Below are positions 1 to 20,068 of a stretch of 64,000 nt of DNA, piece after piece; positions within the stretch are counted from its first letter, which is position 1; the number at the start of each line of letters is the position of its first letter. Location: contig JBEWZL010000261.1 in assembly GCA_045837725.1 (NCBI GenBank), positions 1 to 64,000 of the forward strand. Direction: 5' to 3'. The DNA comes from Vermamoeba vermiformis (taxonomy: Eukaryota). The position numbers and the translations under genes are program-made. Below the pieces are notes generated by a model. The model was not told the origin of the DNA, did no database searches, and worked only from the letters and a program-made list of their open reading frames with translations.

Positions 1-144
1 AACTAATTTTAACTTGAAAATTTAAAAATTGAAATTACGATAAAATAATGTTATAAATGGTGGAAGGATAATTTTAAAAATCTTACCTTAATTTATCTCG
101 GTCAGTGCACCGAGATTTGATCGCGTTTTGTTCGCGATCTTAAA

Positions 145-822
145 GCCGCGCTGGAACGACGCTGAATGTCATTTGGCGCGTGTGTATTGATTGTAAATGA
201 ATAATCTAAATGCCCAAATCGACACTTGTGGTCGATCTGTTGCGAATCCTAGATTCGCTACTGTCAATCCTCGAAATAACACGCGCTGAACGGCCGTGTT
301 GACCGTGGCGCGGCACTATCTGCTGTTAATAAGCAATAATGAATAAATATAACGACCTTTGTGGTCGTTCTGTTGAATTACTGATGCGAAATAGCCCGTG
401 CGCCATTTTCGCATCAGCTCTGATCCAAAATAACTCGCGCTGGAACGGCTCTGATGCCGCGGCGCGTTACTGTCAGCTGTAAATGAACTCAATAATACCA
501 AAAAATAAATAAATCGACCCTTGTGGTCGATCTGTAAAGTAAATTGTAAAATAGTGTCAAAACTTGGCGTGCTATTTTGGAAATTCAAAATAACTCGCGC
601 TGAAACGGCTCTTGATGCCGTGGCGCGTCACTTTCTGTTGTAAATAAACTATTTTGAATAAAAAGTTCGACCCTTGTTCGATCTTCCAATTCCGCATCGG
701 CTCTGCAATCTAAAAATAACTCGCGCTGTAAAGGCTCTTGGGCCGTGGCGCGTTGCTATCAGCTATAATAACGAGTAAATAACAATGATAAATGAATAAA
801 TCGACCAATGTGGTCGATCTGT
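145..822. repeat. Array of ~5 alternating hairpin motifs (period ~133-162 bp)
   Basis: Motif A ATCGACC-n5-GGTCGATCTGT at ~218, 351, 513, 666 (degenerate) and 800. Motif B AAATAAC(T/A)CGCGCTG..CGGC..GCCG.GGCGCG at ~147, 274, 427, 587 and 711. AT-rich variable linkers lie between them. Confidence 0.85.
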
Positions 823-1699
823 CTATATTTAAATTTAAATGACGCTTGCGATCGTTGACTGACTTGGTGATCGCCGCAGAAATTGTTTAAAATGATTTAA
901 ATAATAATAACAAAGATAGTAATTCTATAATTTAACGCGAGTAACGATAATCTCGTTAATCTCGCGGATTTGAATTTCAATAGAGGATCGAATCTGACCT
1001 CGAACGCATCCAATAAATAAAATTTTGCTAATATTGTTATTATTACATACCATGAATCATGCAATAGCCATTAATTGTTCATAAATCTTCCTTGATCCGT
1101 CATTTCGAGTCGACGGATCGGCGCGACGATTTCTAGCTTTCTCTGCCACCGAGAATTTTGGCATTAATTTCGCGCGTTGTTTCTCGGCGGTCTGAATCCA
1201 AAATAATTAACAATAATTAATTGAGAGGTCTGGATCAAAATTAAAAGATCCAGGGGCCCGTTGGCTCCCTCTGATCCCCGCGCTATTTATCGCTTACCTT
1301 GTCGTATTAACTAAAAAAATAATATAGCCATATTAGCTCATTGTTTGAGCTATAGTTTCGCATCAATGCGAAATTGAACACTGTTCGTTCGAGACAGTAC
1401 TGTTCAATTTCGTTCCATTTTTTGCCAGTAAATTCGGGGCGCCAAATTTTCCGGTTTTCCAGTCATTAGGCGCCCCCCAGTGCTCCCCTAACCCTAAAAA
1501 TCCGATTCGTTTTTATTGAAAGAAAATCGTTGAAATTTGGTTACTTTTTAGCGGCGACAGTCGTACCATCCACACTCATTTTTTGTACGTTCTGTTAGAG
1601 TTTTTCGTACAATAATTACGTTTTTACGGACAAAAATGGACTGAGACTCGTGGACTTTGCCATATTCAACAAAATAAACACACTATTTTAGTGTACTCT

Positions 1700-2140
1700 A
1701 TTATCTCTTGATTCTTTGTATACACCTCATATTCAAGTTTAAAGAATGACATTGCATGATATTCAACAACTAAACACTGATTTATCAGCATTCTCTCTTT
1801 ACTCTCTATGTATACGCCCTCTATTTGCATTCATTATCATCATCATCCTATTGTATACACCCCCTCATTCAAATACATTCAATTAGATTACTCAACTCTC
1901 TTCTTTGTATGCACCCTCCAATCAGACTAAAAACATCATTATTATCTTCATTCTCTATCTATGCACCCTCTATTCAGATTCAATATCATACTATCTATGC
2001 ACCCCAATCATCATTCTTCATGAGAATACAGAATGAAATCTCAAACCAAACATCACTTTACTTAATCAACATCACTTTCATTCCCCTTTCTATGCGGGGG
2101 CTAACACCGCTAATATCATCATATTTTCGTACGCCTATCA
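1700..2140. repeat. Degenerate pyrimidine-rich tandem repeat with TAT(A/G)CACCC core
   Basis: Cores tgtatacacc, tatgcaccc or tatacgccc at ~1717, 1808, 1852, 1906, 1959 and 1995, usually followed by ctattc/caatc. Confidence 0.6.
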
Positions 2141-2245
2141 TATGACATTAAAAAAACAGCTATAGAAACTTTGTAGCTACTTTTTACAATATTTTATTTT
2201 TAACCCTCTCACCCCCAAACCCTAAAGCTATATTAATTTTTTTTC

Positions 2246-2660
2246 AAGGGTCGGTTCCTCATGGAACCGGGGTTTGTAGGACTTAGTTTTTTTTAACCCC
2301 CGGTTCCTTGAGGAACCGACCCCTCTTGGACTTTATTTTTTTTCAAGGGTCGGTTCCTTGCCGTACCGGCCCCTCTTTGGACTTTATTTTTTCCCAAAGG
2401 GCAGTTCCTCACAGTACCGGGGTTGCTGGACTTAGTTTTTCTTGCCCCCCGGTTCCTTGAGGAACCGCCCCTTGTTTGAACTTCAATTTTTTTAACAGGT
2501 TGGTTCCATGCGATACCTCCCCCTGTTAGACTTTGTTTTTACATAGGACCAGCACCACACAAACCAGTCTTCCATGTGTCTGTACCCCTGGCTCCTTGTA
2601 GAACCACCCCTTGTTCACCTTTAGCTTTTCAAAGGGGATGTTCCACATTGCACCAGGCAA
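2246..2660. repeat. ~50-bp tandem repeat with palindromic GGTTCC-n5-GGAACC core and GGACTT-T-run tail
   Basis: About 9 units at ~2248, 2298, 2347, 2399, 2446, 2498, 2546, 2585 and 2634, increasingly degenerate rightwards. Confidence 0.85.
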
Positions 2661-3313
2661 TGTTTAACTTAACATTACTTAACTTACTTTAGTCTACAGC
2701 CTATCTTTGGTCCGCAGAGCTTTGCTTTCACTGCCTCGCCAAATAAAAACACCAGTTGTAACTGTTTTATGTAAAAATAAAAAAAACTTCAAACAAACTC
2801 TTGCTGTTCTTTTCTATTTATTGTTTTTCATACATTTATTCTAAGTAAATTAAAGTTAAACTTGTCTCTTAGTGTTTTTATTTTGGCATGCTTTTCAATG
2901 CAAAAGTGACGGCAAAAAGACAAAAAAAGTCAAAAATTTAACAAAAAAGGGGTTTACTGGACTTTAAACTCTATAACCCTTAAATTTCTATAACCCAGAA
3001 GCCTACTATAATCAGCTTTTAGTTTGCAAACAATCTGATTAATTATTGGCAATAAAAGCAGTGGTTGTTCAGTCACTAGATTTTGAATTAATGATAAATA
3101 ACATATTGTTTACATGCCTGCTGCATTACATTTATTCTTCTCCAGAGAGCAAAGCTCAATTTGACCAAGGTGTGTCACTTTTTGCAATACAGGTGGCCGC
3201 ATAATCCTCTCAAGAGCTTGCTCCATCTGATTGAGGTAGGAGGTTACTGAGAAACTAAAATAAGATTCAATAGGCTGTTAATGTAGCCCTATTTATTTGT
3301 TTTAGAGATTACA

Positions 3314-5014
3314 TTAAGCATCACTTGCAAGAGGCTTTTCTTCACCTTCAACCTCAGACATGTGTGATTTTAAAGCCATGCCTTTTGTCTCAGGAACCAA
3401 GAATGTCAATCCCAAACCTATAAGGGAAACAACTGCACAGCCATAGAACACAACTTGATAACCATACATCTTGGCAACAGGAGCAAACAATGCACTTCCT
3501 AAAGCATGTATTAATATCTCACAGAACTGAGTAATTCCCTTTCACTCACCAAGAATTGCACCAACTTTACCAGCCGCAGAGGACAGTCCATGGCAAGTTG
3601 CTCGAATTTCAGCAGGATAGACTTCACCAGGCACAATAAATGTAGTTGAATTTGGACCAAAGTTTGAGAAGAAGAATGTCAAGCCATAGATAACAACGAA
3701 CAAAATGCTTTGCTGCACGAGCCAGTCATAGAACAAGCCCATTGCTCCGAACACGAGGACCATGAAGGAAAAGCCTGTCAACGCATTAGTGAGTTATGGG
3801 CATCCTAATTAGGTCGTACCTAGCAATTGAATTGGTCGTCTGCCCCAAATATCGATCAGTGCAATCGATAACCAATAGCCAGGCAAGGAAATTCCGGCGA
3901 TTATTAACGATGAAATGGCTGTTCTGAACAACACTTCATCGACAGTTCCGTCACCTATAACAGCTATTAGTAACGACATTGCACTAATTCTATCACGAAC
4001 CTGACAAGCCAAGAATGATCAATACAGTCTCCTTGAACAATCCGTTGCCGTAAAAAGTGATGTCAAACAATAACCACGTGCCAGCAGTGCCCAATAACGT
4101 CCATTTGTATTCTTTCCAAATGATTGTCCAAATCATTTTCTGGGAATAAACTCCCTGCGTCTTTTTGAACTGATGAGAATCATGCAGCTTAAATCGATGA
4201 TAGGCCGTGAAAATTCCTAATCGCAATGTCCTGTTAGGAAGATATCTAACACGTTGTTATGCCGAACGTACCAGGAATGGCACCAACACCGAGAGTAATA
4301 CGCCACACATACTCAAGCGGAACTCCAACACCAATCAACAGAAGAACTGTCAAACAGTTAGTCGTCATTATACGTTCAGTGCGCGCTACTTGCCAACGAG
4401 CGGTGCTAGCACGTAGCCCCAGCCTTGCATGGAGAACACGAGGGCCATTTGTCGACCGCGTGACTCGGGCTTGGCTCCTTCAGCAGCGAGTGTCGCACTC
4501 AATGGATATTCACCGCCAATACCAAAACCAAGAATCGTTCGGAAGATTCCAAGCGAAATGTAGATCTGTCTGTGATTCGTGTTAATTCTCGACAGAAAAG
4601 TTACGCTCGTTTACCAGACTTACGAGTTGTTTGGGAATGACAATGCACAAGCTACAGCCATGACCGTGATAATTAATAGAGTAACGATGAACATTTTACG
4701 ACGTCCAATCTTGTCGCCCATTAATCCGAAAAAGAGTTGACCAAGCGTGGCACCAACCTGATTAACCGATGTAAATATGATTGCGAAACTATTAATTGAT
4801 GCCAACATACCAATACTGCAGTTGCGAGAATACTTTCTGCTTGTGTATCTTCTCCATAGATTTCACGCAAAATGACCATGACGATACCAATAACGAATAG
4901 ATCGTATGCGTCGGTCATAAATCCGACCGAAATAACAATTAAACGCACCAAAGGATGCATTTTATAGGCTGCTTTCGGCTTTACGAGAGGGTCTGTTACT
5001 TTGTAGTTTTCCAT
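3314..5014 (-). CDS. MFS inorganic phosphate transporter (PHT1/Pho84 family), multi-exon
   Basis: Motifs [63 protein letters not shown] and [23 protein letters not shown] ~5014, TAA 3314-3316. Confidence 0.92.
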
Positions 5015-5504
5015 TGATTTGTCGATCTGAAAATCAAATAAATAATTTGAATAATTATAAGTCGCGAAATAAATCGCTAAATTATTGTTTGTGAGCGTAA
5101 AAACATTGAAAATTAATTTACAGGTTTTTGACGATGCGATCCGTTGTCCCTCCAACCGTCACATCGTTCTATAAAAGTTTATATTGTGTCTTACCTTGAT
5201 GTAATAAATACTATAGTGTAGTGATCGTCATTACATGTGAAAATGACTTTTTGAGCTCGGGAGACTTTAAGACTACTGCGAGCAAACGATCTCACCAATA
5301 AATCGAGTTAGTGGTGACGTTGTTTGCTATTTTGTATTGTATGCTTTTGCAAGCGTGCAAGTAAATAAATAGTGAAGGAGAAAAGTTCATCGAATCGTCC
5401 CTCGAGGAGACGGCAGAATCACGGGAATTTCGTGCACACGTGCTTTGAAAAAGTCGCCAAAATAGTCAGCGACATTTCGCGGATCAGGTCAGGTTTATTT
5501 CTAG

Positions 5505-8500
5505 TTACATCACGTCCGCTATCTTCAAATACATGCGCAAAAAGGCCTGGTGCAGTTTTCCAACGTGAATAATTTCGTAGCGATAATCACGTGTCTCCTG
5601 CAGCAAGTACAATTCTCGGCCCCGTTCTGACTCTTCAGCGAGCGCTTCAGCAAGTTTGCTCATCACCGAACGGCTGCTCAATGTTAACATCGAGAAGTAG
5701 ATGAATATTTGTATTACTTACCGATCATTATTATCGCCCGACTCGTTGCTATCCTGAGCGCTACCTTGAGCAACAGTAGCCAACAAGCGCGCATATCCGT
5801 AGGCAATGGCCGGTGAACGGTGGCGCAGACCTGATTGCAGAGCTGGTAACACACCTTCGGACACGTATCGGAAGCGCCCTGCGGCTTCAAATGCACGCTG
5901 ATTGACGTAAATGACATCGCTAATGGCACTCTCAAACGCTCTTCGAACATTAGCAGTGACGCGTCGCAGGTAGCCAAGTATCAACATTGCTGAGGCTCGG
6001 CTGGTGAAGAAGATCTCGTCGCACACAGCATCGATCAACAGCTGATCCAGATGAGGATATTCTTGAGCGTGATTTGCAAAGGCTGCAGGCAAGCGTTGAC
6101 ACACGGCAGCACAAGCTTCAATGGCAGCATAACGCGCTTCTACGTCCTCCAAATCAAGCAGAGATTGATCCATACGCAGCGGTTTTGACAAGATCTCAAC
6201 CAGTCTCTTCAACACCACTTCAATCAACCAAGGCGCTGTTTCGTAGAGATCTCCAGCCACGCGATAGTACCGCGAGATGAGGGCAGGATAGTACCAAGGA
6301 TAGTGCTTCACTACATCAGTTAGTGCATCCAGTGCCTCTAAAGGATCTTTTGCAATTGCTGCTAGCTTAGTGAGAGTTGAACCTGCAGCGCTCAGAGCCG
6401 TCGGAGGTGATTTGATGTCGTGCCTCAACCACAGACCTGCCAATGCCTCGCGTACTGCACGCACTACCAATGGTCGCTGCTCGATTTCCAGCAAAGTCAT
6501 GAAATACGACTCGTCGCGTGTAGCTCCCTTGGACTGTTGTGCTAGCGCTACAATACCAAAGGCTGCCACCTTCTCGTTATCGTTTTCAATGCTATACTTG
6601 AGCACGCTAGCGTACTCAGGTATAGGTTTTTGATCGTGTTCCAATGCGCGGAACAAAAAGACCTTCACCTTGTCGCTGTCCGTTTTTGCGTGTAGCTTAA
6701 GCAAGGCTTGTTGAATCTTGCCACGCATTCTCTCAGGCAAATGTTCGGCGGATAAATGTAACAAGTTGTCAGCCGCACGCAACAAAGGAATCTGACAAGT
6801 GTTAGTAGTCGGATTAACAAATTTGTTAGTAGGTATTACCTGGACAGACTCGGTTGAGTTCAATAACAGGTCTAACAGTACGTCCAAAGCAGACCATGCT
6901 AGCAAGTGAATGCGCGACAGAAGGTAATGAGCTTCTTTAGCCTTCGGCCCATTGTTATTGACCAATTGCACAAACTGTTTGATTGCTTCAGGATCATCGT
7001 GAATCGTTCTTTCCCAGAACCATCGCAAGATCTGTGATACTCCCGGCTCGGATCGTGAGTACCTTAAAAGTTTGGTTTAGTAAATGGTTACAGTAGCGGT
7101 ATATAGAAAGGTCATACTTCAACGCTTGGCCAGCTATTTCCAACGCTGTGTCAGTGCCGAATTGAGACACGTTGCGTAGACTCTCAAAGCGCTCAGTGCC
7201 GTTGAACACAAGGACAGCGCGATGTCTGCTGCGATCGTCGCCCATTCGAAGGCATCGAATGAGCACGGGGACGGTGTCTGGTGTTATCAAACCGCCTTCA
7301 CCAAGTAGTAGCGCGGAATAGCGTAGAATCTTCTCGTCAACTGTCAGTGTGATAGGCACATTACTTGATGCATCGTTGGTATTCGATGGCTCATTAGACT
7401 CGTACGCTGTCGGGTCACTAGTAGCCAGTGCTTTCAAAAACCAGTTTTGTACGATTGGGAGGAGGTCTTTTTGGGGTGACCATAAGTACTGCAACAGATC
7501 GGCCACAAGTGCATTTTGATTCATGATAAGTAGTGAGTCTACCACGTATGCAATGTAGTTTGTTAAGAAATAGAACTGGCTAACTCCGTACTGTTTGATG
7601 ATCTAAACATCGCAGGTTAAAGCAATGTTGTAATGACTTTGCTCGAGACTTGAAATTACCTCAACTGCCTGGTTTTGCTTCAGTGGATCTAATAATGCAC
7701 CCCAAAGAGTCTCGTAATGCGGATAAGGAGGCACAGAGTACTCCATCATGATGCTGTTCATGTGATTCTAAAGAAAGGTTAGATACGAGTCCAGTCCTAT
7801 TCACTTTTCTTTGCTCTTACAATCATCATAATGGGAGTCCATCGTCCAATTAGCTCGGGATAGACGTTCATCATGTGCTCATATAGAAGTACATGTTGGA
7901 TTGGCGGGCGATCTTTGGCAATGGATTTGATTCCATCCTGTTAACGAAGGGGTTACTTTCAGAAAACCGATGCATCGACGCTTTACCTTTAGTTTTTCGA
8001 CAAGCTGGGAGTGCCTTTCTTTGAGCTTCTCGTAGGGACTAACGAGGATTTGAGACGAAGCGAGTGTGATTGCCATTTGATACTCCTTCTGCGAACAAAA
8101 GCTTAGTTGGTTGCTACAAAGCCAATGTTACGTACGCTTGACTTCCTGACCACATTCAACACGCTCTGAAGCACTTCGTGTCGCTTGTCACTGTCTAAAT
8201 AAGGTGCTAGAGCTAGCAATGTTTCAGCTTTGATATCCTTGTCGGGAATTTCTTCCGCAGCCTTTGCAGCCTCGGCGAATAATTTCTTTCTGGTATTTAC
8301 ATCCGGGTGATGAAGTCCAATCAACCGTAAAGTGTCACATCGCAGCTTTGGTGATCGAGCAGCATCGCTCATGGTAAGCTGAAGAGCCTTATCGAGCAAC
8401 ATCAGCTTGCCTTCAAGTGGCAACCAAGCTGAGAACCGAACAAATCGCCGCGCTTTTGAATGAACGTCCTCTGCAGCATCCGTGATGGTTTTGATGGCAA

Positions 8501-11500
8501 GCTGCACAGCTTGTTCGGGATTGGCGCTGTACTCATTGTTGAGATAAAATTTCCTAACGGAAGGGTTACAACTATGACTGATACTGTTACAAAATCTGCG
8601 CTTACCCTAAATCAGGCGTGTCGTAGCCCGAGCCCAAAAGAAGTCCCAAGTCTGGTGTGAAGACCGTTCCCAGATTAAGGTTTGCCAAGTAGAGCTCTGA
8701 CCAGCGTCGCTCTGAATGACGAATCGAGTGGAACAGAGCTTCGGACTTGATTGACACCGTGTCGTCCATGGGCATGTATGGCACCTGGAACATTATAAAA
8801 GTAAGTAATGGGTCATTGGTGCCCAATGCGGCATACCAGTGATTTAGCAAACACTAAGCTCTGCACGGGTGTGCCATGAACTGTTTTGATCAAGTTCATG
8901 CCCGGCTCGGTGCCAAGATCTAGTGCCACGGCGAATTCGTAGATTGTGTCGTGATTTTCATGCACGCACTGACTCACTTTCAACAATGAGTCGTGTGCCT
9001 CTTTCAACAGCTTTGGAATGTCAGCAACTGGATAATATGCCGCCACTCGCCACTGAATTAACGTGCGAGCCTTATGGTCAGCAATGTTACGCAGAGCAGT
9101 CCAAGCCATTTGCATCATAATGTTCTTAGTTGTTTCAGGCAACTCGGCTTCATCTAGTGCCTGGAAGGTGGGACTTTCTTCGAGGTTACGAATGACAATT
9201 GTCAACTCGTTGGTCAAGCGAGCCACGTGATTCAAAAATAACTTCACGCAATATTTCTCGAACTCGCCATTATTAGCGGAGTCGATGGATTTGCGTACGT
9301 AGCTGTCATCCTCACCTACGATCGAAATTAAACAAATGCTTGATAAGTAGTCTAATGGTCTTACCAAGTATCGATAAAATCAACAAAGCCTGTGCTTTCA
9401 TTTCCGCGTGTTGGTATGTCACGCACAAATTTGAACTCTCCCACACTGAACAAAGTACGTTCCGCAAAGGCTTAACATTGCCAACAACTATTTGTTTGCC
9501 TTTCAATTTGCTAAAATTGTACGTCAGCAAGGAGTAGAAAAAGTTTTTCAACTAACCTCAAGACAGGTAAAATCTCGTCAGTCAGCAGTGAGTCTCGATA
9601 AATCAATGACGGCTTGAACTTGCCATTGTCTTCAAGTCCTCCGTACAGTGCTACAATTGAGCGATACAACTTCGAGCTCTGAATAGACACGTGTTAGTCA
9701 CTCAACAAAATCACCTGTACAGTGACGTACCAATAACTCTTCGTGTTGCTCGCCATCTTGCAAGAACTTTCTCATCTTCAATTTGTTTTTCAGGACCTCA
9801 TTAGTTTCAAACACGCGATTGTTGTCACGTCGAACCATCAATCGTAAGGCTGAATTGATTGGCCAGCCCCAGTGAGGTGAATCATGATCCACAACATCTA
9901 ACAGCGCGAGGCCAAGGGTGGCACTGCAAAAGCCTAATTAGAGCTATTCTGCCTATTTAAATATCAACCGTACGTACCTAACAAATTCGCAAGAGTTGAT
10001 GATCGTCGCGGCTGCGTACGCGCGATTGAATTGACTTTGTTTTACTGTCTTGCTTTCACCGTGCGATGCAGCAAGGTTAGTATTGTTAGAAGAACTGCTT
10101 TTGATTGGCACGGCGTTAGTCTTCCAAGGCACGTCGTGCTCTTTCTCCTTCAAGACGCTGAGAATCGATTGCAAAACTTGATCGACTTGATCGGGGATCT
10201 CTTGCCTGATCTTCGCAAATGCATTCTGCACTTCAGTCTTAAACTTTTCAGTGATGGGCGAGTAGGTAGACTTATCGCCCTTCTTGTGCGTGTTGGTCAC
10301 AATTCGTGTCATGCGAATGTAGTCGAAATGAGTGTTTTGACAGTAAATCTCCAACAGACGAACGATTGTCTCGGCAACAATAGGCTAGATACACAAGAAT
10401 TAGGACTGTATTCTGAGTATCAAGATAAAGCCAACTTACGCCATCAATGGAGACCCCAGGATTGCTGGCGTATTCAGGCAGAATTTTCGCAATTAGTAAA
10501 GTGATTCGCGGGAACAAACTGGACCATGGTGTTAATGTAGTTGAGCTCTTCTTCGGATTAATGTAACCGTAGATTTCATCGCTACGGAATGGCTTTGCAG
10601 GCTTCTTTTTCTTCCAAATCAACGAAAAAATTCTACAATTAAGTTAGACTGGCACGTGACAAAGTTAAATTTGTACCTCTTTGGTGATTTGCTGCTCTTG
10701 GTAGGACTCTGAGCGAGATTAGAACTGCTTTGACTCGCGCCATCATCGCGCATGACCACGTCCGCTTCATTAATTGACTTGAGCGAGACACCCAAATGCG
10801 GTGCCAATTGACCAGAGTGCTCGGTAAGCAACAGATCCACGATCAACTTGTCACGTGTTGCTTTTGGCCAGGAGTGTCCGACCTCGCCAAGAGCCAAAAT
10901 AATTACTTCTCTCCAGCGAGGTTGATTAACACGCCGTAGAATTTCTGCGGCTGCACTATCGGGGTCACGAACGAGGTAGATCGCCGCGAGATATTCTTGG
11001 AATGTTAAATGCAAAAAGCCATACAAAAACTCTCCTCGAGCAGCGAGCAGTCCTACTTGTTCTCGAAGCGCTGTGACAGTAATTTAGAAATTAGCGCGTT
11101 GTCTAACATATAATAGCAAGGCCGGTCGTACCTGTCAAAAATAAACTGACGTCATTTTCGAATGTGCTTGGAGGATTGTTCGGGTCAATGTTTCGTGCTT
11201 TCGCCAGTGATTTGGCAACGATAGCCTTGAGCTTGTCTTGTTCTATTAATCCCGTTGGATAGTGCGAATGAATATGGAACGCGAGTGGTGACAAAACACC
11301 GATCACTTCTTCGACCATCAAACCTGAGTTACGCCACACCTCCACTAAACATTGTACGGCAATGCGATAAAGCTCCACGCGCTGTTTAGGAAGTGAGCCA
11401 CCGCTGTAGTGAAGTAGTGCCAAAGTGGTTAATAGCAAAGGGTTTGTTGCTAATTCGCGCACACTTGGCTGAGTCAAAATACTCTTTTTCAAAGACAACG

Positions 11501-13591
11501 CTTTGAATCGAAGTTCTTCTGGGCTATTTGCATGGTTAGTACGAAGCAGCCGAGATCATACTGTACTCACTTTAGTTTGCTGCTCGTCACTTTGTGTACA
11601 GCAAGTGTCCACGAGTCACAGAACCGCTCAATTGATGGATTGTCCAGTGGCTCAATAGTGACGTGAATCACGTCATCACTAAAGAACGATTAGATCTTGC
11701 TAGGTACTACAAGACAGTCGTCCTTACCTCAATGGGCACGCATGATATCCAGCAATTCGACTCGTGACAATTAGTTGATTGCCTTGACTTTCAGTTGTTT
11801 CAGTTTGCCTCTTCTTGTCAAATGCATTCCATGGGTTCCAATATTGCTCCACATTGTTACTTTCAGGCAGTCGGACCCATTCGTGAACAAAGGCCTCGAC
11901 TTCTTTCACAATTTCTTCACGCTCGCTGCCAGTGGTAATTTCATCGAGCCCATCCAAAATAATCACCGCTTGATCACGCTTTAAGTACGATTTGATCATC
12001 TCATTTAATGTGTCTGCTGGCACCGGTGGGTATTGACCTGCAAATCCAAAATTAGTCAATTGCACGAGTGATATATCGAGTCACGTACCTAGCCAGGAGT
12101 GAAAGCCCAAAAAGTCAATCAACTTCAATTGAGGCTCCTTGGCTCGTGCCTCACTGTACTCGCTGACACGCACGAGCACGGGGAACTTTGGAGGTCCAGA
12201 CTCGAGGGTCTTCAAGTCGTCTTCCATCACCTCTTGAGGGTTCTTGCGATATCGTTTCTTATTTACAGGCACAGAACTCGCTTCACTTGATATGCTGATG
12301 CTCTCTTCCCCATCTATTTGCATCGCATCTGCTATTGATTCGTCCTCTCCCTCGCCATCATCGTTGTTATTGTTGTCATTCTCTTCACCATTCTGATCGT
12401 GTTCATTGTTGTCCTCGTCTGCATCCTCTCCTTCCTCGTCTTCTTCTTCATAATCTTCGGCCTCTTCGCTAGCAGATTCAATGCTTATGCCATCGCCAAT
12501 CGTCTCATTGTTATTGTTGTTATTTACAGGTTTTTCTTCGGCGGAATGGTTTTCTTCAGAGCCTTTAGTCTCTTTTTGCTCTTTCTTAGCGAGTGCAGAT
12601 CGTTGTAATATTTTGTTCTTGAAATTTATGGCGACTTTTTGTGTGATAAAGCGTGCTAGAGTTGTTTTGCCCGAGCCTGGATCACCCAAAATTACGAGTA
12701 CCTTAGGCGCCATATTAGAAAACGCCAACTAACAAAATTACTACATACTTGTTCTTTTTGGAATGCTTTACCAACGGTTAACTTTTCAGGGCGAATAGTT
12801 GCAAACCGATCCTTTTTATCTGCTTCCCAAGGCCGATCGCGTTCTACCAATGATGGCATAAATGGACTACGACAAGACAATCGTTAGAAATCAGACGAAT
12901 TTACGGAGTTCATCGTCATACCTGAGCGACAAGAATCGCCAGCGCAGTGCCCGAGCATTTTTCCTAACGTGCGGAATTAGATCGAGAAGACAACTGTCTG
13001 AAATTGCAGCCTACCCTTCTCCACCACTGAGATTGTCATTAAATTCAATATCGTCCATCGTGTATTCTAGTTCTCGAAGTTCACGCTCGAATAGCAAACG
13101 GCTCTGTTTTCTTTCGTATCCGCTGGAAAAGTCACCTCTGTAATCAAATAATCCGTTTAGATAATTAAAGAAATTATTTTAATGACCAATTGCCGTATAA
13201 AAAGAATTATTTCTGCAAGAATAACGCGTTGCAGGTCAGATCTGAATTCAATAATTTTTAAAATTCAGAATCTTTTTTTCTCGGGACAAATTTACTACGA
13301 TTAATTTCTTAATACGAGCACTTACTTCAGAGTGACGTAAATCATATCCAAAGGGACCGTGAGAGTCTCACCAGAATTTTTTGTTATTCCACGCAACTCC
13401 ATTTTGGAGTGTTGCTCTAATATCCATTCGATATAATTCTTTAAATATACATCTTCAATATTATGTACAATGCGTTGAAAAAGGTTGTCAGGAAGATCTT
13501 CCCGCAGATTGCCATAAAGGGAGAAATTCTTTGCAATAGTCTTGAGGACTATATTGAACAATGACTCTACTTCGTTTCGCTCGGGGTTCAT
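5505..13591 (-). CDS. Large NACHT-family STAND NTPase with long alpha-helical (HEAT/TPR-like) C-terminal region, multi-exon
   Basis: Walker A VILGDPGSGKTT, Walker B IILDGLDEI, sensor VTSR, HD1 LATNPLLLT and WHD YGFLHLTFQEYLAA, then RWREVIILA. Collinear minus-strand ORFs joined by short GT-AG introns run to the stop at 5505. Confidence 0.85.
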
Positions 13592-18270: not shown

Positions 18271-20068
18271 ATGGAGGTAAAAATTCGATTTACGCTCTTT
18301 GAATTTTGAAACTAAGAAAAAAATATTTAGAAAATTTTGTAATGTAATTAAAATTTATTAATTCACCTCCATTAATTTAGGTATCAGATGCCTTTTCGAT
18401 CCACAAGCTTGTCAAAGAAAATACAGCAATTCGAATAGTAAAATTGAAACATTTGATCGTCCAAGGCTATGACTGGAACACTTCGCAATGCGAGTTGTTC
18501 GTGGACGCCATTAAACACTGCACCTCATTAACCTCCCTAAGACTGCCATTGGCAAATTACAACCTCGTGTATTTGCTTCGCAACATATTACCCTCGCATC
18601 CTACAATTCGCTCCGTCACCATTCAAGCTGACGAACTCTTCGAGACACAACTCGATAGAAAAAATGATCCAAGACGCACACTGGACAGAACTCAAATTCA
18701 TCGGAGAAGAAGAACCGACCACACCACGCAAGTCTATTATCTAAAATATGTCGTGGCTTAATGAAGAACAACACGATAACAACACTGGATCTGTCGCGGT
18801 GTTTTATCGAGCAACGAGGTATTGAGGACTTAGAAGAATTATTTAAAGTGAACAATACGATCAACTCGCTGCTAATTGATGTCGACAGTGAAGCGAATTT
18901 GGATTTGCTGTCTAACGTGCTACAAGAGAAAAAACAACTCATTTCATTCGGCATTCTGGGTGCTATTGAACAGGATGGCAACTGGACAACCCTGGCGCAA
19001 GCTCTTAGAGCCAACACATCTCTGACGCATTTAGAACTACATCCTCAAGTCAGTGAAGGCAGTGCACAAGAAATTGTCGAATTGATCCACAATAACCAGT
19101 TGAAAAGCTTGGAAGGCGATTTCTACGACGAGGATATGGACCTCATTTACGAAGCGATGTTAGCCAATACGTCTTTGACCAGTCTAGACTTTGGCGGTTC
19201 ATATTACAACAACTGCGACTTGGTCAGTGAAGTCATCAAGGTGCATCCAGCTCTGAAACACTTCTCGCTTTCTGTCGGCAGTTCGAACAAAAGTCAAATT
19301 GTGCCAATATTCGATGCTTTGAGACACAATACCAGCATAACCAGCTTGAATATCGCTGGCAGCACTTTTGATACGATGTGGCAGGAGATTCGGGAAATGT
19401 TCAGCTTTAACACAACAGTGCGTCACTTGACTGTTTCTGACAGTTGCTTCTACAAAGACGATTGGAAATTTTTCAAAGAGGTGTTATGCTCTAGTAGTGC
19501 GTTGAAGAGTCTTACTTACACCAATTCTTTGCCTGAACACTCGGAATGGGAAGAAATGTGTCAAGGCATTAAAATGAACTCGTCACTTACTTCACTAGTA
19601 CTCAAGGTGGATGATGACATGAGCAAGGCAACATTGGACACCTTATTTGCCGCACTCAAAGGAAATACAACCCTGCGATCGCTGACTATCGAGGCTCCAG
19701 CGGTGAACCTCTCCAAATATCACCAAAGCAGTTTTTACGACAATTTGAACCTCGAATCTGTACTTCTCATTGAACTATCACTGGACTCGGGGCTAGTTCG
19801 ACAAATCGAGCAGCGAGGTTTTGAGAGGAAAGTAGCACGACGAAGAGAGGTCACGAATCTCATTATTTCACTGTTCAACATTGCACGTAGACCAGAATCG
19901 TTTGACTTATTTCCAGCTGAGATCTGGCTCCAGATATTTAGGAACATCAACTCGACGTACTTGGATGTACATGGCGTCTTTGCTGCCATCTTGACTGACC
20001 ATACAATAAGAAAGATGGTGGACTTTGACAAAGATGTATTTGTTCCCTTTAGTTGCACCTTCGAATAA
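18271..20068 (+). CDS. Ribonuclease-inhibitor-like leucine-rich repeat protein; apparent frameshift(s) near 18650-18760
   Basis: Repeated L..NTSLTxLxL motifs. Short ATG-GAG first exon, then GT..AG intron. C-terminal F-box-like LFPAEIWLQIF. Confidence 0.75.

Follow-up and report, generated by a model that had tools for sequence, protein, structure and literature searches.

A hairpin array in non-coding, telomere-polar elements of Vermamoeba vermiformis that might attach to chromosome ends

To our knowledge, retroelements that attach to telomeres through a template-like tail have been reported in rotifers and a few other groups, and always carry their own reverse transcriptase (RT) and a hammerhead. 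In yeast, Y' elements and subtelomeric long non-coding RNAs (lncRNAs) combine telomeric repeats at an inner junction with polarity, mosaic copies and a transcript that runs toward the telomere. The Terminons of bdelloid rotifers expose telomeric repeats, in reverse complement, to the chromosome end by means of a 3' fold, and they occur as 5'-truncated copies in head-to-tail chains (available text of PMC6431247). The TART element makes a multi-intron, non-coding antisense RNA, and the accessible portion of PMC1636488 leaves open why such intron-rich antisense RNAs are kept.

The DNA analyzed here, called the window, is a stretch of 64,000 nucleotides at the start of a contig (C261) from a 43-Mb genome with short introns, TTAGGG telomeres and one TERT. 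Near its beginning lies a hairpin array that is located close to the inner end of a non-coding element of 1.5-7 kb, within which no ORF was found. The element occupies chromosome ends with a shared polarity, stops sharply on its inner side, is truncated to varying extents on the telomere side, stands in head-to-tail chains and gives rise to a spliced antisense transcript. We judge the chance to be about one in two (roughly 0.5) that it is a non-autonomous, non-coding telomere-attaching retroelement whose array serves as a repeated protein-binding module.

The element resembles Terminons/Athena, which are endonuclease-deficient Penelope-like elements, in its end location, polarity, chains and 5' truncation capped by telomeric repeats, and, like Terminons, it has telomeric repeats in reverse complement immediately behind a 3' fold (both as described in the available text of PMC6431247). 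However, the fold here is a plain covarying stem rather than a hammerhead, the element has neither an RT nor any other ORF, and its antisense units of intron plus hairpin exon and its array have no counterpart in that part of the source. Its telomeric head-to-tail arrays and long non-coding part recall Drosophila HeT-A/TART, as does an antisense RNA that lacks a long ORF and whose several introns are similar in size (excerpts of PMC1636488 and PMC5537684). Unlike HeT-A/TART, it resides in a host with TERT and TTAGGG telomeres, has no gag or RT ORF, and finishes in a telomere-complementary tail instead of a long oligo(A) end. Because the features that define them are lacking, we place the element in neither Terminons nor HeT-A/TART, though it appears to work like them. 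TERC-ITS insertions also combine telomeric repeats with flanking RNA-derived sequence at breaks, but these are rare telomerase RNA fragments (partial text of PMC2246262), whereas here we observe multi-kb families of many copies. Yeast Y' likewise shares the telomeric repeats at the inner junction; the element differs in having no helicase ORF (among 113 flanking ORFs), and in its conserved terminal stem and exact tail ends.

No description of such elements in amoebae or other protists, or of elements mobilized by telomerase, was found in the literature covered, which consisted mostly of papers outside subscription and did not include the primary Terminon paper. Here, several non-coding families of one telomerase-positive protist follow the same end logic without their own RT or hammerhead, and one of them adds a regular hairpin array resembling protein sites, along with spliced antisense micro-intron units of ~143 bp that number in the dozens. 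With this system one can ask, in a tractable way, which enzyme uses foreign RNA to heal chromosome ends, and whether TERT can copy kilobase templates. It also bears on why telomeric elements keep intron-rich antisense RNAs.

Five B and five A hairpins alternate across window 87-822, with self-folding spacers, and all array features quoted in an earlier note on this DNA are present where it had placed them. Unit 0 (87-215), a member of module family 'a' (36 of the 475 outer modules described below), includes hairpins at 96-115 and 119-139, a long hairpin B0 at 147-180 and an AT-rich linker. Unit 1 (218-345) is composed of hairpin A at 218-236 with a 6-bp stem, a spacer-1 hairpin at 242-258, hairpin B at 282-312 and another AT-rich linker. 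In unit 2 (351-510), a variant hairpin A (AACGACC/GGTCGTT, 351-369) is followed by the spacer-2 hairpin at 381-417, which is longer than first quoted, hairpin B at 436-466 and a linker. Unit 3 (513-665) has hairpin A at 513-531, a spacer-3 hairpin at 548-578, hairpin B at 596-627 and a linker, and unit 4 (666-822) has a shortened hairpin A at 666-682, a short spacer, hairpin B at 722-752 and the last hairpin A at 800-818.

Hairpin B is 31 nt long in most units, whatever its inner register, and the linker from B to A is mostly 39-40 nt of free AT-rich sequence. A minus-strand AG lies 4 nt from hairpin B in all 84 aligned units (window 316-317, 470-471, 631-632 and 756-757) and is acceptor-like, without a canonical donor. 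The possibility that it closes non-canonical introns inside the array, with a GTCG donor in hairpin A, was set aside, because these putative introns would measure ~41 nt versus 45-65 nt for canonical ones and would have no branch motif, and because the B0 linkers are equally long yet lack the AG. The motifs expected for K-turns and Sm sites are not conserved, and these readings were dropped. The earlier note had also allowed for identity with an rDNA spacer or a satellite; neither applies, given that there is no rRNA in window 1-3000 or at seven loci and that TRF makes no call on 90-830.

The fold predicted for window 90-830 has an energy of -227 kcal/mol (z -5.0), which none of 20 shuffles equals. 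The z scores of units 0-3, folded as RNA of either strand, are -2.6 to -5.3; unit 4 is the weakest (only -0.7/-1.6), and three control stretches range from 0.0 to +2.2. The compensatory pair of hairpin A at 351-369, highlighted in the earlier note, is present. Among 88 copies the pair is T-A in 58, A-T in 19, an A.A mismatch in 9 and T.T in 2, and 18 of the 19 A-T copies are the same positional unit, the one with spacer 2. The quoted change is therefore mostly one inherited event.

Stronger evidence of covariation is given by hairpin B, which was aligned for 84 of the 89 units found by pattern, with five that have indels or strong divergence omitted. The outer helix is 96.8% paired in this alignment, a value inflated because the selecting pattern demanded both arms. 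There are 20 two-sided cells versus 4.6 in shuffles, counts that related copies inflate and that come from an alignment in which two subtypes are out of register, and a G-C pair of the inner stem becomes A-T in 14 of the 84 units. Together with the terminal stems (6 of 14 pairs, below), these changes support the earlier proposal that selection acts on structure.

Signals for the strand of folding are mixed. B pairs 14-35 and 15-34, a tandem U.G/G.U, hold in all 84 aligned units, but only as plus-strand RNA, and CpG decay could be an alternative source of these letters. An inner pair of B is C.A on the plus strand in 30 of 89 units (G.U on the minus strand). The last 200 nt fold better on plus and the whole 735 nt better on minus, and consensus folding of single hairpin families, with mixed orientations and poor alignments, gave no strand choice. 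Nonetheless, from the fixed length of B, the fixed B-to-A linker and the plus-strand tandem U.G/G.U, we consider the A/B array most likely to be a repeated protein-binding module near the 3' end of a template.

The same regularities have been weighed for another function. Each unit might be a small-RNA gene or precursor with a constant hairpin A and a variable hairpin, served by B and the 39-40-nt linker as a promoter or processing signal. The fixed B length and B-to-A spacing amid free AT-rich sequence, the constant-plus-variable layout and the invariant minus-strand AG after the linker would all suit this arrangement. We nevertheless regard it as improbable, since the spacers are orthologous by position and have no outside target matches, and Rfam offers no family, with chance-level matches only for window 1-3000 and seven loci. 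The unit stems are also short compared with those of microRNA precursors.

The array is followed by a conserved inner-end region (823-1435) with hairpins at 1094-1119, 1334-1352 and 1369-1412 and, on the minus strand, purely predicted splice donors at 1050-1045 and 1297-1292. Next comes a plus-strand terminal stem, GGGGCGCC/GGCGCCCC (1436-1476), which covaries across subfamilies, and the element ends ~680 nt right of the last A hairpin in a telomere-complementary tail on the plus strand, CCCTAACCCTAAAA (1486-1499). This finish, a covarying stem plus CCCTAACCCTAA, is sharp. Six copies of the window's subfamily are common up to CCCTAACCCTAAAA and then diverge at once, and in other subfamilies the end consists of two or three repeats, some exact and some degenerate. 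In 11 aligned ends, 96.7% of 151 cells of the two terminal stems are paired and six of the 14 pairs have changed on both sides; none of 500 shuffles comes as high, and slid controls give 27-52%. The one-sided changes are G.U on the plus strand. The last stem closes 9 nt ahead of the tail, which is single-stranded in the fold.

Many arrays are internal and lead into further modules instead of a tail. A telomerase RNA gene was rejected as an explanation because the copies share nothing downstream of the template-like tail. In one copy (C86; L053 right of 1820), the flank after the tail is reverse-strand tRNA-like by eye. The tail at 1486-1499, the link to telomeres and the antisense introns all go beyond what the earlier note had described.

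The array is present in many copies. Window 60-1300 has 54 matches in the genome at 71-100% identity, in answer to the earlier note's interest in further copies, and patterns for hairpins A and B have 93 matches on 38 contigs (control 0) and 124 matches (control 4), respectively. Contigs of at least 60 kb number 25; of their 67 A matches, 66 lie no farther than 45 kb from a contig end, and at 24 of 27 ends the polarity is shared, with the tail pointing inward. True telomeres are distal to arrays on C8, C164, C177, C226, C252, C258 and C260. The exceptions to polarity are C11, C221 and one reversed array of C258, and the array of C30 lies 108 kb inside its contig. At C258:16460-18274, two opposed arrays are only 0.8 kb apart; this pair, with C11 and C221, possibly reflects end fusions. 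Near-identical duplicated stretches that include arrays are seen between C110:1-20000 and C11:755001-775000, and between C243 and C124.

Spacers 1-4 recur at the same positions across copies, with units lost or repeated. Thus, the variable spacers do fold on themselves as the earlier note reported, but they are not unique to one copy. Their orthology by position also indicates that they are not newly acquired, unlike those of a CRISPR-like array. A guide-RNA array of this type is further opposed by the absence of an effector among the flanking ORFs and by a CRISPR-DR22 match that is at chance level (E 1.4).

Outside this genome, the exact 20-nt hairpin-A pattern matches one viral contig and five metagenome sequences, in each case singly, in unrelated DNA and without hairpin B, and a phage blastn search gave no match. 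Since such exact-pattern scans find no relative elsewhere at their given sensitivity, the family is apparently restricted to this lineage. Among the 113 flanking ORFs there is no RT, helicase, viral hallmark or CRISPR effector; their Pfam matches include SET, ankyrin, His-Me endonuclease, DDE transposase, a weak TET/JBP and host-type domains. Of the functions proposed in the earlier note, an endogenous virus therefore loses support, given no real viral or phage match and no hallmark in these ORFs, and a small-RNA array does as well. Its ideas of selection on structure and of a mobile-element cis-signal fit the data.

To the right of the array element, the window holds a plus-strand 3' fragment of a second telomere-polar family (1502-2237), with a fixed right end and the tail CCCTAAAGCTATATTAAT, and a plus-strand fragment of a third (2238-3000), which is 98% identical at C123 and C272 and holds a 50-bp tandem repeat (2236-2540). 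Because both are 3' fragments of other families in the same polarity, window 1-3000 is a chain of three elements. Although its right end is fixed, the left ends of the second family take 10 or more different positions, between 153 and 661 of the query, and its C137 copy rests on the final ~170 nt of an array element. Copies of the array element are also truncated variably telomere-ward, with coverage dropping stepwise in that direction, and are chained head-to-tail with other families that share the tail motif.

At least five unrelated families, including one array subfamily, end in CCCYAAA-N1-3-STATATWA(T) and are followed by unrelated DNA. This shared motif has 53 matches versus 1 in the control, and 32 of 33 forward matches lie within 49 kb of a contig start. 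Examples are found at window 2220-2237, the end of C44 (L159), C258:59 and 12046, and C162:7450 and 7607. At the end of C44, a true telomere stands directly on a tail of the shared type. The TATATAA of this tail could alternatively be a TATA box directed into the next element. The 50-bp unit at window 2236-2540 is palindromic and forms a subtelomeric tandem repeat; others occur at L040:1000-3700 and L048:7356-8481, and the types include CCCCTGCGGGG units and GC-rich repeats.

Chains of this kind might instead be built from a subtelomeric DNA repeat of the Y' type that spreads through ectopic recombination or through break-induced replication primed at the internal CCCTAA tail. Subtelomeric recombination yields both polarity and mosaics, which weighs against the retroelement reading. 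The copies are indeed mosaic: module order next to the array is fixed as e-d-c-f-b-a, and on C86 the inner end is 97-99% identical and the array 84%. However, recombination requires neither a covarying stem beside the tail nor tail ends at the same base across unrelated families. Very short 3' fragments beneath other elements or telomeres (~60 nt on C252, ~170 nt on C137) also speak against it. We view this route as possible but lean against it.

The outer part of the element extends 1-6 kb telomere-ward, where assembled, in units of ~143 bp. In each unit an AT-rich stretch, mostly 45-65 nt long, has on the minus strand the signals of a canonical intron (GTAAGT, branch motif, YAG); the rest is an exon of 80-100 nt with GATC- and CGCG-rich hairpins that fold on the minus strand. 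The donor motif occurs at 3.32 versus 0.10 per kb on the two strands (33x), with host values of 0.69 and 0.51. Of 206 predicted junctions, none is intron-less in the genomic DNA examined, and the introns have probably persisted in all copies owing to their antisense orientation relative to a plus-strand template. By loose clustering, 475 modules from 30 stretches form 57 families and 182 singletons. Their order is kept beside the array and varies farther out, and further arrays, with no tail, stand within the chains. Coding exons were excluded on the grounds that homologous exons are out of frame or carry stops. An A-family hairpin is also seen in outer introns (L034:6465-6533 and homologues), where one pair is switched (C-G in 52 and G-C in 29 of 85).

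The first nucleotides of the window (1-86, minus strand) appear to be the 5' part of an intron of the telomere-ward transcript, with the donor GTAAGA at 86-81. This intron runs off the contig start and is ~185 nt long in other copies. Expression was assessed by mapping four runs on C43:200001-210000, which holds two arrays and outer modules and is a different copy from that of the window. One run contributes a 172-nt contig (X1), presumed to be RNA, that matches perfectly and lacks a GT..AG intron of 48 nt read on the minus strand of the element. The other three (X12-X14) are raw RNA reads, with 56-86 partial reads each, and appear to come from another strain or species because the host DNA beside the element is nearly uncovered. 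In eleven of these reads the unit-0 exon runs straight into the exon that follows, as if the intron with the donor at window 86 had been removed, which suggests splicing at the homologous unit-0 junction in related material.

RNA depth over the array core is at most 0.09, and both mates map alike. No RNA data set is recorded as containing window 1-6000, which counts neither for nor against transcription. No plus-strand RNA is shown in the four runs on C43:200001-210000, and no pile-up of read ends was seen in these low-depth, standard RNA-seq data from another strain or species. The RNA evidence thus points to a long spliced antisense transcript running telomere-ward, and away from a small RNA per unit. 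A telomere-ward spliced lncRNA is also the product expected of a Y'-like repeat, whose hairpins would act in RNA or as DNA-protein sites. For that alternative it counts that minus-strand spliced RNA is the only RNA with evidence, that the exons fold on the minus strand and that no RT was found.

Returning to a telomere-attaching retroelement, head-to-tail stacking at ends together with a folded, telomere-like tail suggests that the element may be copied onto broken ends by an RT. The Terminon-like end anatomy and the TART antisense precedent lead us to propose that the plus strand is the template, the introns are antisense passengers and the array is a binding module. A plus-strand RNA, reading from telomere to interior, would present a CCCUAACCCUAA(AA) tail beside the stem, and this tail would pair with the 3' end of a chromosome that has eroded or broken. 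An RT supplied in trans would then copy the RNA, and telomerase or the next element would cap the added copy. Candidates for the enzyme are TERT, a Penelope-type RT that escaped detection, and a non-LTR RT that works without its endonuclease. The points against this proposal are that no partner RT, no hammerhead and no plus-strand RNA were found, that strand signals are mixed and that many arrays are internal.

The search for partners was as follows. Thirteen of 55 RVT_1 loci were inspected, and by ORF layout they are gypsy-, DIRS- and non-LTR-like, none with an array; the exon-by-exon search can miss a divergent, intron-split RT, and the assembly is incomplete at ends. On C260, a gypsy-like insertion lies between two arrays. 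The hammerhead core motif was sought in window 1-3000 and in 14 contig-end stretches, where it has four matches, none near an end. A genome search with the TERT motif-C exon matched only itself.

No RT of the TERT clade other than TERT itself was detected, at least five unrelated families share the tail, and on C44 a telomere stands on such a tail. These facts admit a version in which non-coding RNA families imitate the telomerase RNA template and host TERT copies them onto broken ends, which would make them telomerase-dependent retroelements. The stem, CCCUAACCCUAA and a short AU-rich tail would be the template mimic, the A/B array would bind the RNP, and the hairpin modules of intron and exon would be a growing string. 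We hold this version to be doubtful.

A multi-exon gene cassette is present at ~20 places (e.g. L085:1828-10000 on C164 and L131 on C260), transcribed toward contig ends. It lies distal to arrays on C164, C209, C226 and C260. Eight other contigs with the cassette (C32, C56, C149, C205, C240, C265, C270 and C272) show neither an array in the stretches read nor an A match, and we treat it as co-resident. Its protein has 24 homologues, mostly unnamed fragments, and no Pfam, Atlas or fold assignment, with helical bundles only (best Z 7.4). A model of a 370-aa fragment (pLDDT 63) has no informative Foldseek or VIA-align match, and its linkage to the hairpins is loose. Two of its motifs resemble those of Rep_trans initiators, but a Rep-like protein was discarded because Pfam, Atlas, Foldseek and VIA-align were uninformative.

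The hairpins might also act in single-stranded DNA, as the origin, nick or recombination sites that a rolling-circle or tyrosine-recombinase element would need, with this telomere-linked gene cassette serving the element. Units 0-3 fold on both strands with RNA and DNA parameters alike, as such signals would, and the cassette's ~20 places and transcription toward ends also agree. We think this quite unlikely, given that the cassette gene has no family match, that eight cassette contigs lack the array, and that canonical spliced introns and a telomeric tail are foreign to such elements.

Several other genes were noted. Host genes at window 3100-13000 (minus) and 18668-20068 (plus) include transporter-like, large NACHT/STAND-like with HEAT-like repeats, and LRR genes; the transporter-like gene was called by eye, and its scanned fragment has no Pfam match. 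Two near-end ORFs, L156:350-1522 (C16) and L084:3-884 (C163, no Pfam match), look by eye like degenerate tyrosine recombinases. ORFs for TET/JBP-like 2OG-Fe(II) oxygenases occur in or beside structured regions at L032:1938-2849, L044:4155-4799 and L087:3799-4389 (one weak Pfam match, E 0.003). Subtelomeric islands also carry ORFs for two His-Me endonucleases and a SET-domain protein (L039:8830-9999, L111:6228-7136 and L036:6951-7529).
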